In this document: one piece after another, positions 7,818 through 12,342 of the stretch
Layout: the number at the start of each line of letters is the position of its first letter
Position numbering within the stretch: the stretch's first letter is position 1
Assembly: GCA_947488755.1 (NCBI GenBank)
Contig: CANLAD010000001.1
Span: 198,247-262,246 of the forward strand
DNA from: an uncultured Erythrobacter sp.
GTDB lineage: Bacteria > Pseudomonadota > Alphaproteobacteria > Sphingomonadales > Sphingomonadaceae
DNA length: 64,000 nt
Direction of reading: 5' to 3'
Made by a program: the position numbers and the translations under genes
Notes under the pieces: model-generated
Databases searched by the model: none
Told to the model about the DNA's origin: nothing
Seen by the model: the letters and a program-made list of their open reading frames with translations, nothing else

Positions 7818-8069
7818 TTACAGTTCGACCCCGCTTGCGATCGCTTCGAGCTTGCGGATGCGTTCCTTCAGATCGGCGATCTCGATCCTTGCCGATCCCG
7901 CAGGAGCACCGCCTTCGATCTCGCGCGGTTGATTCTGGCGCGCCTCGATCCGCTCCAACTCGCTGCGTTTCAATTCAAGCCACCCCTGCCATGCGCGCAG
8001 CAGGGCGAAGGCGACGACGCACAGGCCGACAAGGCAGGTTGCGGCGATCATCAAGGTGGGTTCGATCAC
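7818..8069 (-). CDS. Psp-zipper paralog 5 (PspB/PspC-tail-like single-pass membrane protein)
   Basis: 83 aa. The GTG start overlaps the paralog-4 stop (GTGA). TM helix TLMIAATCLVGLCVVAFALL. A shorter motif, IADLKERIRKLEAIASGVEL, sits at the C-terminus. Confidence 0.55.
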   Translation of the reverse strand: MIEPTLMIAATCLVGLCVVAFALLRAWQGWLELKRSELERIEARQNQPREIEGGAPAGSARIEIADLKERIRKLEAIASGVEL

Positions 8070-8431
8070 AGATTCTGCTCCTTCCCATCGTCTTCGGAGG
8101 TCAGCGCCGTCCCGCCGTCCTTGGCGGAGCCGTTGGGCACTCTAAGTGCTTCGATCTCGGCGGCAATCCGGGCACGCTCGCGCGCGTCCTCGCTGTTGGT
8201 GTCCGTCGCGATCCGCTCGAGCACTTGAAGCCGCTCGCGCAATTGTTCGATCTCGCGCCGGGTTTCCTCGGCCTCGGCTTCGGCACGGGCCTGCGTTTCC
8301 GGCGATATCTCGGGCTTGTTGAAGACCTCGTTCCCGCGATTGTCGGTCGTGATCCCTGCTCGCGCCTTGGCGAGTTGCACGATGCCCCAGACCACGATCG
8401 CGATGATGGCGACGAGAGCCCAGCCGCTCAT
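8066..8431 (-). CDS. Psp-zipper paralog 4 (PspB/PspC-tail-like single-pass membrane protein)
   Basis: 121 aa from ATG 8431, which overlaps the paralog-3 stop (TGATG); the ORF track starts one codon earlier at TTG 8434. TM helix GWALVAIIAIVVWGIVQLA. Motif LRERLQVLERIATDTNSEDARERARIAAEIEALR. Confidence 0.7.
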   Translation of the reverse strand: MSGWALVAIIAIVVWGIVQLAKARAGITTDNRGNEVFNKPEISPETQARAEAEAEETRREIEQLRERLQVLERIATDTNSEDARERARIAAEIEALRVPNGSAKDGGTALTSEDDGKEQNL

Positions 8432-8697
8432 CAAGCGGTCTCCCGATTTGTCTGGTTTGGTCCTTGACGCAGGCTCTCGATTTCCTCCGCCAGATCCGCC
8501 GATCGATCGGTCGCTATGCGCTCCAGAACGCGGACCCGGTCTTCAAGGTCGGCGGGTTTGCTGGGAGGCCGTGCCTTCTGCCCCTTCGCTGCGGATCGGC
8601 GGCGCAGCAGGAGATAACCGCCCGCGCCGCCGACCAGCGCAGCCAGAGCCGCGATCTGCAGGGCGTCCATGACGAGGCTCGTATCCGCGCTGAACAT
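8431..8697 (-). CDS. Psp-zipper paralog 3 (PspB/PspC-tail-like single-pass membrane protein)
   Basis: 88 aa. The ATG overlaps the paralog-2 stop (TGATG). TM helix ALQIAALAALVGGAGGYLLL. Motif LEDRVRVLERIATDRSADLAEEIESLR. Confidence 0.65.
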   Translation of the reverse strand: MFSADTSLVMDALQIAALAALVGGAGGYLLLRRRSAAKGQKARPPSKPADLEDRVRVLERIATDRSADLAEEIESLRQGPNQTNRETA

Positions 8698-9032
8698 CAG
8701 GCGGCGCCTTCTTCATTGCTGGTCGCCAGCGTCGGACGGCGCAGGTTCTCGATCTCGTGCCCCAGACCGTAACCGCTATCGGTGACGATCCGCTCCACGT
8801 TGGCGAGCCGGTCCTTGACCGAACCCAGCTCGGCGCGAAGCTCGGCGTTTTCCTGAGTGAGCAAAGCGACGCGCTGCTTCGCTTCATTGTCCGTCGTGGG
8901 CTTGATCTGCTGGCCCCACGACCCCTCCAGTGGATAGCCGTTCTTGACGCGAAGCCAGGTGGTGAAAACCCAGCCCGCGACGCCTGCAAGACCGACAGTC
9001 ATCAGCAATTCGGTGGTTACTAGTTCAAGCAT
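8697..9032 (-). CDS. Psp-zipper paralog 2 (PspB/PspC-tail-like single-pass membrane protein)
   Basis: 111 aa. The ATG overlaps the paralog-1 stop (TGATG). TM helix LLMTVGLAGVAGWVFTTWL. Motif VKDRLANVERIVTDSGYGLGHEIENLR. Confidence 0.7.
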   Translation of the reverse strand: MLELVTTELLMTVGLAGVAGWVFTTWLRVKNGYPLEGSWGQQIKPTTDNEAKQRVALLTQENAELRAELGSVKDRLANVERIVTDSGYGLGHEIENLRRPTLATSNEEGAA

Positions 9033-9346
9033 CAGACTTTCTCCTTGCTTGGCATGTCGAGTGGCACGCCTGCGCCCTGCTGTTCCACTTCGCGCGTGTC
9101 ACGCAGCGCTTCGATCTGGGTGGCGACGTCGTAACCGCGATCGGTGACGATGCGTTCTAGCACCTGCACGCGGTCCTCGAGCTGCTGGACCTGGTTGGCA
9201 TATTGCGCGGCTTTTTCGGCGGTGTGCTGTGCCGTCGCATCGGTTTTGATTTCGGCCATCTTCTGCTGGTGCTTAGCCCAGATGGCAACGACCGGTATGC
9301 TTACTCCGATGATCGGAATCATCAGCGCTAGAACTCCAGTGTCCAT
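9032..9346 (-). CDS. Psp-zipper paralog 1 (PspB/PspC-tail-like single-pass membrane protein)
   Basis: 104 aa. SD GAGGGGA lies upstream of ATG 9346, 26 nt after the pspC stop. TM helix GVLALMIPIIGVSIPVVAIWA. Motif LEDRVQVLERIVTDRGYDVATQIEALR. Confidence 0.7.
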   Translation of the reverse strand: MDTGVLALMIPIIGVSIPVVAIWAKHQQKMAEIKTDATAQHTAEKAAQYANQVQQLEDRVQVLERIVTDRGYDVATQIEALRDTREVEQQGAGVPLDMPSKEKV

Positions 9347-9372: not shown

Positions 9373-9747
9373 TCAGCGCAGCTGTTCAATCTCGGCCGTC
9401 AGGCGCTGGTTGCTGCTGACGTAATAGGTTTCCACATCGGCCAGCCTGCGGTCGATATCGCGGAACCGGGCGCGGATTTCGCGGGCGGTGCGCTTCGGGC
9501 TTTGCCGCACGCTCTGCCAGTATTTCTGTTCGCCCGCGTCACGATAAAGATGCGGTGGCTTCTTGTTGAGTAGGAAGCCGGCGACGAAATAGGCGAGCAG
9601 CGGCCAGCCGAGCGCGATCGTGAGGCCGACGAGGCCGATCCGGATCCAGAACGCATCGACACCGGTATAGTCGGCAATCCCCGAACAGACGCCCATCAGC
9701 TTGGCATTGTGCTTGTCGCGGTAGAGGGTTGTGCGGGGGCTGTTCAT
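9373..9747 (-). CDS. pspC: envelope stress response membrane protein PspC
   Basis: 124 aa. The PspC domain is LYRDKHNAKLMGVCSGIADYTGVDAFWIRIGLV (compare E. coli GMVRGVCAGIANYLNVPVKLVRILVV). One TM helix. The zipper tail is IDRRLADVETYYVSSNQRLTAEIEQLR. The start overlaps the pspB stop (ATGA). Confidence 0.85.
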   Translation of the reverse strand: MNSPRTTLYRDKHNAKLMGVCSGIADYTGVDAFWIRIGLVGLTIALGWPLLAYFVAGFLLNKKPPHLYRDAGEQKYWQSVRQSPKRTAREIRARFRDIDRRLADVETYYVSSNQRLTAEIEQLR

Positions 9748-10055: not shown

Positions 10056-10742
10056 TTATTCTCCCTTGTCCTGCTCGGGCTTGCCGAGCGCTTTTTTCAT
10101 CTGTTCGAGCTCGTCGTCGATCTGGTCCGACCCTTCGAGCGCGGCGATCTCGTCCGACAGGCTCGGCGGCGCGTCGGCTGCGATGTTCATCGCATCGGCA
10201 CGGCCCTCGGCGTAATCGACCCGGCGTTCGAGCTGGTCGAACCGGGACAGCGCCTCGTCGGTGCGTTCGGTGCTCATCAGCGTGCGCAGCTTGACGCGGT
10301 TTTCCGCGCTTTCGAGCCGCGCGGCGATTGCACTCTGGCGGCTGCGTGCCTCGCGCAGGCGATGCTGCAGCTTCTGGATGTCGTCCTCGTACGCGCGCAG
10401 CGCATCGTCGAGCACGGCGATTTCGGTCTTGAGCTGGTCGCCCATCTCCGCCGCCTTCTTCTTCTCGACCAGAGCCGCACGGGCGAGGTCTTCGCGATCC
10501 TTCGACAGCGCGAGCTGCGCCTTCTCGCCCCAGTCGGCCTGGAGCTTGTCGAGCTTGACCACGTGGCGGTGCATCTCTTTCTGGTCGGCAATGGTGCGCG
10601 CCGCGCTGGCGCGGACTTCGACCAGCGTTTCCTCCATTTCGAGGATGATCATGCGGATCATCTTCGTGGGATCGTCTGCCTTGTCGAGCATGTCGTTGAA
10701 ATTGGCTGCGATAATGTCGCGGGTGCGACTGAAAATGCCCAT
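10056..10742 (-). CDS. pspA: phage shock protein A
   Basis: 228 aa from ATG 10742, with GGAG about 10 nt upstream. MGIFSRTRDIIAANFNDMLDKADDPTKMIRMIILEMEETLVEVR is nearly colinear with E. coli PspA ([44 protein letters not shown]). The ORF track extends 72 codons further upstream (see findings). Confidence 0.9.
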   Translation of the reverse strand: MGIFSRTRDIIAANFNDMLDKADDPTKMIRMIILEMEETLVEVRASAARTIADQKEMHRHVVKLDKLQADWGEKAQLALSKDREDLARAALVEKKKAAEMGDQLKTEIAVLDDALRAYEDDIQKLQHRLREARSRQSAIAARLESAENRVKLRTLMSTERTDEALSRFDQLERRVDYAEGRADAMNIAADAPPSLSDEIAALEGSDQIDDELEQMKKALGKPEQDKGE

Positions 10743-10966
10743 GAAGGCTACTCCGTCGAGAAAAGGGTTGGTGTCGGATTGGCGGGAAGTTTTTTCTTCG
10801 CTGCGACGCTCGCTGCCCTGAGCGCGACCCTGTGTCCGCGACTGGGTCGGCGTGGGGCTGCGACGAAGCGCCTCGATTTCCTCATCCAGCCGCGAAAGCG
10901 CGCGTTTCGGCGGGCTCTTGCGCTCGGGGCCGAGGGGGTCGTTATCCTGTTTGCTCACGACCCGTC

Positions 10967-11134
10967 TCAGGCCAGTTCAAGCGTGAAGGCGGGTTGGTCG
11001 ATCGTCGTCGCCACTCCAACCATCGGAGCATCGAGCGTCATCTGGGTCGACAATGCGATCATCGCTGTCATCGCGGCAATGCTGGCGAGCGAAGCGCGGT
11101 CCAGCTTGGTAGCGAAGAAGTTGCGGTTGTACAT
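10967..11134 (-). CDS. small hydrophobic protein, first ORF downstream of the sigma54 psp promoter (hypothetical, 55 aa)
   Basis: ATG 11134 is preceded by SD GAGAGGA. Sequence: MYNRNFFATKLDRASLASIAAMTAMIALSTQMTLDAPMVGVATTIDQPAFTLELA. G/C at codon position 3 is about 78 percent by my hand count. It lies about 40 nt downstream of the -12 element. Confidence 0.5.
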   Translation of the reverse strand: MYNRNFFATKLDRASLASIAAMTAMIALSTQMTLDAPMVGVATTIDQPAFTLELA

Positions 11135-11179
11135 GATCGGTCCTCTCAACAGGGTCGGTGCGTGTATTGCCCTTCATTC

Positions 11180-11195
11180 TGCAACCAGCGTGCCA
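11180..11195 (-). promoter_or_regulatory. sigma54 (-24/-12) promoter of the psp operon
   Basis: The minus strand reads TGGCACGCTGGTTGCA, a full match to TGGCAC-N5-TTGCA. It is about 100 bp from the divergent pspF start, and GCAAT/ATTGC repeats (11211-11275) lie between them as possible activator sites. Confidence 0.8.
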
Positions 11196-11295
11196 AACCT
11201 GAGATGCCCCGCAATTCCGCGATATTACCGGCTCACAGTCATTATCGCAATGGGATCTATTGCCAAACATTGGGATTTTTCACTATAACGTGGTC

Positions 11296-12342
11296 ATGGA
11301 GCGCGAAAACCAGTTCATCGGGCAATCCGGGGCCTTTCTCGATGCAGTCGAGCGCACCTCTAAAGCTGCGCCGTTGAGCCGTCCCGTACTCGTCATCGGC
11401 GAGCGCGGCACCGGCAAGGAACTGATCGCCGAGCGTCTCCACCGCCTCTCGACCCGCTGGGACGAGCCGTTGGTGACGATGAACTGCGCGGCTTTGCCCG
11501 AAACGCTGATCGAAGCCGAGCTGTTCGGGCACGAGGCCGGAGCCTTTACCGGTGCTACCAAATCGCGCGCCGGTCGGTTCGAGGAAGCCGACAAGGGGAC
11601 GTTATTTCTCGACGAACTGGGCACTTTGTCGATGGGGGCGCAGGAGCGGCTGTTGCGTGCGGTCGAATACGGCGAGGTAACGCGAATCGGTGCATCGCGA
11701 CCGATCCGGGTCGACGTGCGGATCGTCGCCGCCACGAATGACGACCTGCCCGCGCTCGCCAAGAGCGGCGAATTTCGCGCCGACCTGCTCGACCGCCTGA
11801 GCTTTGAAGTCATCACCCTGCCGCCGCTGCGCGTGCGCGAAGGCGACGTCGGCGTGCTGGCGGAGCATTTCGCGCGGCGCATGGCGGCCGAGCTGGACTG
11901 GCCCGCCTGGCCCGGTTTTGCATCGCATGTAATGGACAGCCTCGAAAACCATCCCTGGCCGGGCAATGTGCGCGAGCTTCGCAATGTGGTCGAGCGCGCG
12001 GTCTATCGCTGGGACGATCCCGAAACGCCGATCGCGCATGTCCAGTTCGACCCCTTCGATAGTCCGTGGAAGCCGAGCAAGCCTTCGCATCGCCGCTCCG
12101 ATTCTCCCGCACCCGCTGCCAACGCTCCCGAAGCGGCGGACTTCGCATCAACCGCACCGTGCTTTGATGAGATCGAAGACCTGCGCGCCGCGGTTGATGC
12201 GCACGAACGCGCCATCGTCGAGCACGCGCTGGGCAAGCATCGCTGGAACCAGCGCCAGACCGCCAAGGCGCTGGGCCTCAGCTACGATCAGCTGCGCCAT
12301 TGCATCAAGAAACACGCGCTGATGGAGGAAACGGCGGACTAG
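11296..12342 (+). CDS. pspF: sigma54-dependent transcriptional activator PspF
   Basis: 348 aa from MERENQFIGQSG. There is no N-terminal receiver or sensor domain. Colinear with E. coli PspF: PVLVIGERGTGKELIAERLH, the GAFTGA loop (GHEAGAFTGA), GTLFLDELG, WPGNVRELRNVVERAVYR, and a C-terminal HTH (QRQTAKALGLSYDQLRHCIKKH). Confidence 0.9.
   Translation: MERENQFIGQSGAFLDAVERTSKAAPLSRPVLVIGERGTGKELIAERLHRLSTRWDEPLVTMNCAALPETLIEAELFGHEAGAFTGATKSRAGRFEEADKGTLFLDELGTLSMGAQERLLRAVEYGEVTRIGASRPIRVDVRIVAATNDDLPALAKSGEFRADLLDRLSFEVITLPPLRVREGDVGVLAEHFARRMAAELDWPAWPGFASHVMDSLENHPWPGNVRELRNVVERAVYRWDDPETPIAHVQFDPFDSPWKPSKPSHRRSDSPAPAANAPEAADFASTAPCFDEIEDLRAAVDAHERAIVEHALGKHRWNQRQTAKALGLSYDQLRHCIKKHALMEETAD

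Follow-up and report, generated by a model that had tools for sequence, protein, structure and literature searches.

Models of the Psp response rest on enterobacteria, in which the promoter served by PspF and sigma54 yields PspA as its first and principal product. In Escherichia coli and Yersinia enterocolitica, the divergent pspF gene encodes a sensor-less activator, a −24/−12 promoter with a conserved upstream block is located approximately 100 nt away, and pspA, pspB and pspC follow downstream of this promoter. A PspA-family gene also has a small neighbor in Bacillus subtilis, where the liaIH operon, induced by stress, encodes the small membrane protein LiaI immediately ahead of LiaH, a PspA homologue.

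The locus analyzed here is part of a 64-kb stretch of DNA from an uncultured Erythrobacter sp. (the whole of this stretch is referred to as the window), and it contains all of the enterobacterial elements listed above. The difference concerns what follows the promoter: the enterobacterial operon opens with pspA (Ravi et al. 2024, PMC11237479), whereas here an ORF encoding 55 aa comes first, and the PspA behind it has a 72-aa N-terminal extension and two start sites. We consider it likely (probability about 0.8) that this DNA contains the control region and the leading cistron of a psp operon which depends on PspF and sigma54 and departs from the enterobacterial gene order.

Within the 64-kb window, TGGCAC-N5-TTGCA is matched without mismatch at one place only, the putative promoter TGGCACGCTGGTTGCA (positions 11195-11180, minus strand); from base composition, about 0.03 exact matches would be expected. 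A preliminary description of this DNA had reported a full match to this consensus, approximately 100 bp from the divergent pspF start; the match is indeed exact and unique, and the distance between the −24 element and the pspF ATG (11296) is 101 nt. An element of the form TGGCAC-N5-xTGCx, placed approximately 101 nt from pspF, was retained in all 30 same-genus loci. The transcription start is predicted, from the −12 spacing, at approximately position 11169.

The pspF gene (11296-12342, plus strand) encodes a sigma54 enhancer-binding protein which, judged by its Pfam domains (Sigma54_activat, 204 bits; AAA_lid_14; HTH_8), has no N-terminal sensor domain, and the same genome contains an rpoN gene (Sigma54_DBD, 222 bits). 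The likely start of pspF is ATG 11296 (MERENQ...), since the products of the relatives align from residue 1 of this form. In a mechanically generated ORF list the gene begins at TTG 11260, a start which is disfavored by the same alignment; the codons between TTG 11260 and ATG 11296 overlap the conserved block described below.

This block, of 43 nt (11251-11293, assigned to neither strand), has the form CCA..TATAGTGAAAAATCCCAATGTTTGGCAATAGATCCCA and includes a CCAA-N3-TTGG inverted repeat. It is situated 56-98 nt upstream of the −24 element and adjoins the pspF start; more than 80% of its columns are conserved across the 30 same-genus loci, and its core, CCCAATGNTTGGCAA, occurs only once in the whole genome. 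We propose the block as a candidate PspF binding site (enhancer), and also as a candidate site for autoregulation of pspF.

The first ORF downstream of the promoter (10967-11134, minus strand) starts with ATG 11134 and ends with the TGA at 10969-10967. As claimed in the preliminary description, its 55 codons are preceded by the Shine-Dalgarno sequence GAGAGGA, which we located at 11147-11141; relatives have ribosome sites of the GGAG or GGGAGG type 5-10 nt before the ATG. A longer version of the ORF (60 aa, from TTG 11149) was rejected, the conserved start being the ATG with the Shine-Dalgarno sequence. The coding-like GC content at codon position 3, first counted by hand as about 78%, was computed as 0.78, against 0.54 and 0.48 in the two other frames and 0.78-0.84 in the neighboring genes.

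Comparison with relatives revealed that the peptide is present in 33 of 36 other genomes of the genus (Erythrobacter/Porphyrobacter by source names). In the same-genus loci, whose pspF and pspA are 80-90% identical to those of the window, the promoter, the small ORF and pspA occur in the same order (30/30), and the ATG, the GGAG-type site, a length of 50-70 codons and the stop are all kept (30/30). The ORF is also present in 17 loci of other genera; conservation of the ORF in related genomes had been proposed as a check, and relatives that keep the promoter without the ORF, which would have spoken against a genuine first cistron, are clearly not the pattern observed in the genus. Ten residues of the peptide are invariant over the 30 loci (M1, F6, K10, A14, S18, A21, M22, Q31, E53 and A55).

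The substitutions are of the coding type. Pairwise differences per site amount to 0.38, 0.27 and 0.56 at codon positions 1, 2 and 3, respectively, and pN/pS is 0.52 over the ORF as compared with approximately 1 in the shifted frames of the same DNA. The ratio falls to 0.37 in the ungapped helix block and to 0.37-0.38 in the last five codons (0.09 in the pspA core), and length differences between relatives preserve the frame. The codons of the C-terminal Glu (GAA in 10 loci, GAG in 20) and of the final Ala (GCC in 11, GCA in 12, GCT in 4, GCG in 3) vary synonymously, which indicates that conservation acts at the amino-acid level. With its conserved start, ribosome site and stop, its codon-periodic substitutions and the purifying selection acting on it, the small ORF is, by these sequence measures, a real protein-coding gene, under less constraint than PspA: in terms of pN/pS the peptide changes at roughly four times the rate of the PspA core, and within the genus its tail shows little conservation. 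Gene order and the coding-type substitutions together support the original suggestion that the transcript opens with the cistron of a small membrane or secreted peptide.

Many spurious ORFs occur in GC-rich genomes, and the conserved sequence might instead be a non-coding 5′ leader, an RNA element or protein-binding DNA in which the open frame is incidental. We regard this as extremely improbable in view of the codon periodicity, the pN/pS of about 1 in shifted frames, the frame-preserving length changes and the conserved ATG, Shine-Dalgarno sequence and stop. Moreover, no Rfam match was found in 10600-11400, and the leader of the ORF is unstructured (z = +1.29), folding less well than shuffled sequences. 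In four RNA runs, searched at 80% likeness, reads fell only on the pspA core and came from other organisms, and depth over the small ORF, the extension and the promoter was at most 6, in one run. The candidate runs shared at most 0.07 of the sampled words with the window; this coverage says nothing on expression.

The encoded peptide has a basic N-terminus and a single helix, after which comes a variable tail, rich in Ala, with a conserved L-E-L-A at its C-terminal end. AlphaFold predicted a single confident helix (residues 4-34) followed by a disordered tail. The basic N-terminus and single hydrophobic segment that had been noticed on first reading correspond to Lys and Arg residues at positions 1-13 and a hydrophobic stretch at approximately residues 14-29 (about 16 residues; maximum Kyte-Doolittle value of 1.9 over 15 residues). 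A core this short and moderately hydrophobic is more in keeping with a signal peptide than with a classical transmembrane helix. When a crude −3/−1 rule is applied, an A-x-A-like site can be placed near residue 38-42 in the majority of 49 family members, and cleavage at this site would leave a tail of 11-19 residues ending in V-E-[IL]-A. The peptide appears to be built like a Sec signal peptide or a signal anchor; its n- and h-regions are better conserved than is usual in signal peptides, which suggests a sequence-specific role, perhaps that of an uncleaved anchor.

Searches of Pfam (E ≤ 0.01), NCBIfam and the ESM Atlas assigned the peptide to no named family, and all of the 520 database proteins that it matches are unnamed or "hypothetical". 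An exhaustive profile search of 1.84 billion representatives yielded 101 clusters at 50% identity, nearly all of which contain proteins of 42-106 aa matched from the first residue, and no long relatives. Two longer or fused matches, from another database, were rejected, since their ORFs had been called too long owing to poor assemblies or wrongly placed starts.

Within the sampled Sphingomonadaceae, the family profile matched 61 of 201 genomes, in 36 of 112 genera, while PspA was found in 184 of the 201. Two of the matches (genomes G115 and G213) were rejected as spurious, being located inside long open frames on contigs other than that of pspA; when these are set aside, the ORF is present in about 59 of the 201 genomes. 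The C-terminal motif of the family is V-E-[ILM]-A, and in the 17 parsed loci of other genera the peptide has 50-53 aa and ends in V-E-[IL]-A.

Analysis of the DNA downstream of the small ORF changed the gene model of pspA. According to the preliminary description, pspA begins 225 nt further on. This holds for the PspA domain, whose canonical start (ATG 10742) lies 224 nt after the stop of the small ORF, but the pspA reading frame itself starts much earlier, at GTG 10958, 8 nt after that stop. The canonical core (10056-10742, minus strand; 228 aa) contains the PspA/IM30 domain (PF04012, 129 bits), and the form started at GTG 10958 has 300 aa, of which residues 73-291 match TIGR02977 (277 bits). 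Two further genes follow on the same strand: pspB (10052-9744; PF06667, 75 bits) and pspC (9747-9373; PF04024, 64 bits).

The N-terminal extension (10743-10958, minus strand; 72 codons, with the motifs DPLGPER and RLDEEIEALRRSPTPTQ) is an open frame in every same-genus locus: between the small-ORF stop and the canonical start (MGIFS...), the pspA frame was uninterrupted in 30 of 30. Its conserved motifs across these loci are DPLGPER, APAQP, SRLD[AE]EIEALRRSPTPTQ and FLDGVAF, and in this motif block conservation at the three codon positions is 0.89, 0.90 and 0.66. AlphaFold predicted the extension to be disordered except for a short helix at RLDEEIEALRR. Long forms of 300-345 aa are already called "phage shock protein PspA" in public annotation.

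The EIExLR motif of the extension (10880-10910) recurs at the C-terminus of PspC (9373-9400) and also ends four of the five downstream PspB-like paralogues (7818-9346). It may represent a shared docking helix.

The canonical ATG 10742 is preceded by GGAGTAGCCTTC (10743-10754, minus strand), which is 73-100% conserved in the 30 loci, mostly 100%, third codon positions included. Near-invariance that extends to third positions points to a retained internal ribosome site, and the internal GGAG was also kept in the 17 parsed loci of other genera. Two forms of PspA, of 300 and 228 aa, are therefore probably made.

An invariant 12-nt block directly before the canonical start might alternatively be read as part of a promoter of pspA itself, located inside or after the small ORF, with the peptide and pspA forming separate transcription units. 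This appears very unlikely to us, because the block consists of GGAG and a spacer, i.e. a ribosome site, and the whole interval is coding. The 224-nt stretch belongs to the pspA frame, and hence there is no spacer of the kind where a second promoter would be needed. The absence of a second −24/−12 element before pspA, which had been noted earlier, was borne out by a search between 11180 and 10742 at up to two mismatches; the same interval contains no sigma70-like site, and in the wider region 10600-11400 neither a sigma70-like promoter nor a terminator-like site was found, including after the small ORF.

The two reading frames are closely joined. Each of the 30 same-genus loci has a start codon in the pspA frame at a distance of −4 to +10 nt from the stop of the small ORF, and in all 17 parsed loci of other genera the stop and the long-pspA start overlap as ATGA or GTGA, which suggests that overlap is the common arrangement. 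In the window (10959-10969) the overlap has been lost, TGA being followed by an 8-nt spacer and then GTG; coupling may consequently be weaker here.

Taken as a sequence of events, the arrangement suggests the following mechanism. PspF would bind the conserved block beside its own start and activate the −24/−12 promoter at 11195-11180, giving a transcript that would begin at approximately 11169. Translation would begin behind an unstructured leader of about 35 nt, and its first product would be the 55-aa peptide (basic N-terminus, hydrophobic helix of about 16 residues and short tail ending hydrophobic-Glu-hydrophobic-Ala). Ribosomes finishing the small ORF would stand at, or within 10 nt of, the start of the long, 300-aa PspA, so that this form is probably made by translational coupling with the peptide. 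The canonical 228-aa PspA, which has its own invariant GGAG site, could be made independently.

Coupling of this kind could be all that the ORF is for. It would then be a leader acting in cis, which brings ribosomes to the start of long pspA and determines the proportion of the long and short PspA forms; the peptide would have no function of its own, and its importance would lie chiefly in coupling. In every locus examined the stop overlaps the start (ATGA/GTGA) or is at most 10 nt from it, the tail of the peptide is poorly conserved, and the genomes which carry the Erythrobacter-type peptide family (A1) and have a listed pspA all place at least 280 open codons in the pspA frame, which are the observations expected of such a leader. 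A pure coupling ORF, however, needs only an open frame, whereas here selection acts on amino acids, as is evident from the ten invariant residues, the pN/pS of 0.37 in the helix block and the synonymous Glu and Ala codons; furthermore, the window keeps the peptide although the overlap is lost. We therefore treat a role in cis alone as a tentative explanation, unlikely but deserving serious attention.

The reading in which the peptide itself has a function is best framed by analogy with LiaI and LiaH: the peptide may be a small envelope-located Psp accessory, a membrane partner or anchor co-produced with the long PspA. We would accept an even bet on this proposal. A complex prediction for the peptide with PspA residues 1-100 gave a score of 0.00, which is evidence neither way.

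The slot between the promoter and pspA is also occupied in other Sphingomonadaceae. In family genomes without this peptide family, approximately 34 of 38 parsed loci have a first cistron that bears a signal peptide by sequence (basic N-terminus, hydrophobic segment and A-x-A-like site), and the distance from promoter to pspA in these loci is 240-680 nt. A protein of 162-172 aa with a TonB_C domain is encoded in 5 of these 38 loci, and the remaining loci of this kind have short first ORFs of 46-105 aa. TonB_C-type first genes were located in six loci altogether (L047:739-1227, L050:176-682, L051:5558-6076, L076:394-900, L081:428-925 and L091:178-696).

In loci L031-L046, L048, L049 and L075-L090, many first ORFs resemble the signal-peptide part of the TonB_C gene alone, and many of these short ORFs end in PLA, SLA, YLA or ALA (hydrophobic-Leu-Ala), like the V-E-L-A end of the Erythrobacter type; a non-polar C-terminus is recurrent among these first ORFs.

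No first ORF was found in 4 of the 38 loci. In three of them (L044, L073 and L080) the promoter lies 57-114 nt from pspA, and in the fourth (L041) the pspA extension starts 37 nt after the promoter.

The closest described counterpart of the TonB_C type is ZMO1062 of Zymomonas mobilis, placed between pspF (ZMO1061) and pspA (ZMO1063). In the Zymomonas locus, which we reached via a qPCR primer from a paper, the order is pspF, sigma54 promoter, a gene for a 172-aa TonB_C protein of the ZMO1062 type and pspA, with 2 nt between the last two genes. Like the ORF of the window, ZMO1062 is first after the sigma54 promoter, stands directly before pspA and has an N-terminal segment resembling a signal peptide. 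The Zymomonas sp. homologue (locus L051; 172 aa) has a TonB_C domain (27.1 bits against a cut-off of 24.6), in contrast to the 55-aa peptide of the window, in which Pfam detects none, and the Zymomonas PspA, unlike that of the window, has no N-terminal extension. In the literature, ZMO1062 figures only as a hypothetical member of the psp cluster (PMC3495753); a table of genes responding to temperature places it next to pspA, ZMO1063 (PMC8237431), and one study labelled it "putative phage shock protein pspD".

The full-length TonB_C genes in the same slot in six of the loci examined raise the question of whether the small ORF is a decaying remnant of a longer gene of the ZMO1062 kind, consisting of a signal peptide and a TonB_C domain, and is nearing loss. 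The short ORFs of Sphingomonas-type genomes do align with the N-terminal 45-55 residues of the TonB_C genes, at up to 54% identity. The Erythrobacter-type family, in contrast, showed no significant similarity to the N-termini of the Sphingomonas and TonB_C types (A2) in hhalign (probability 0.8%), and for this reason we claim for the two an equivalent position, not homology. The exhaustive profile search likewise gave small proteins only. A gene in the course of decay would also not be expected to persist, as this family does, in about 36 genera with its start, Shine-Dalgarno sequence, stop and C-terminal motif all preserved. We consider descent by decay improbable.

In Sphingomonadaceae the first product of the psp promoter would usually be an exported or membrane-inserted protein instead of PspA, and in the Erythrobacter lineage it would be a peptide of about 50 residues, from a family without described function, physically coupled to a longer form of PspA. 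The locus is a psp operon variant headed by an uncharacterised small protein family, whose ORF already stands as "hypothetical protein" in public databases. Such a first-cistron partner, including the TonB_C type, is absent from two large Psp surveys (PMC11237479 and PMC9239133, the latter of which names liaIH). Should the peptide act as a partner of PspA, or adjust the ratio of the isoforms, a much-studied envelope-stress system would gain a new component; should the ORF serve coupling alone, the gene model of these operons would still be corrected.

Three described systems offer themselves for comparison, the first being the small Psp proteins of E. coli. PspD and PspG are small, like the peptide of the window, and are produced from PspF-dependent promoters. 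Their position differs, in that pspD follows pspC and pspG is unlinked, whereas the ORF described here comes first, and Ravi et al. (PMC11237479) found PspD in Gammaproteobacteria only. Caution about this analogy, voiced when the ORF was first described, was justified: the peptide has no similarity to either protein, with no match in Pfam (E ≤ 0.01) or NCBIfam.

The second comparison is with regulatory leaders, and the features in common are an upstream small ORF with an export signal and a conserved C-terminal end beside the downstream start. SecM, MifM and VemP are secretion-monitoring leader peptides, in which an N-terminal export or insertion signal is placed ahead of a gene of membrane homeostasis. 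Force-sensing arrest peptides have the arrest motif more than approximately 40 residues behind the signal, and the downstream ribosome site is held in a stem-loop. The peptide of the window, on the other hand, has about 20-25 residues from helix to stop and no known arrest motif, and, with ORFs that abut or overlap, no stem-loop exists between the cistrons. An arrest peptide of the SecM type was therefore rejected on geometry, the peptide being too short for a pulling-force sensor.

Sensing of another kind can be imagined, in which the fate of the peptide at Sec/YidC, at signal peptidase or at a protease that reads C-termini would report the state of the inner membrane, and the ATGA coupling would then set the amount of long versus canonical PspA, giving the phage-shock response a translational branch of its own. 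The peptide may, for this purpose, be a minimal export substrate, composed of a signal peptide and an 11-19-residue tail with a hydrophobic-Glu-hydrophobic-Ala end. Taken jointly, the sensing and the isoform-setting steps strike us as very doubtful.

The third comparison, with LiaI, is the one on which the proposal of an envelope-located accessory is modelled. The two proteins have no sequence relationship, and they are regulated differently, by LiaRS in the one case and by PspF and sigma54 in the other. The analogy is a functional one: as with LiaI, the ORF is the first cistron, stands directly before a gene of the PspA family and would be expressed with it from the same stress promoter.
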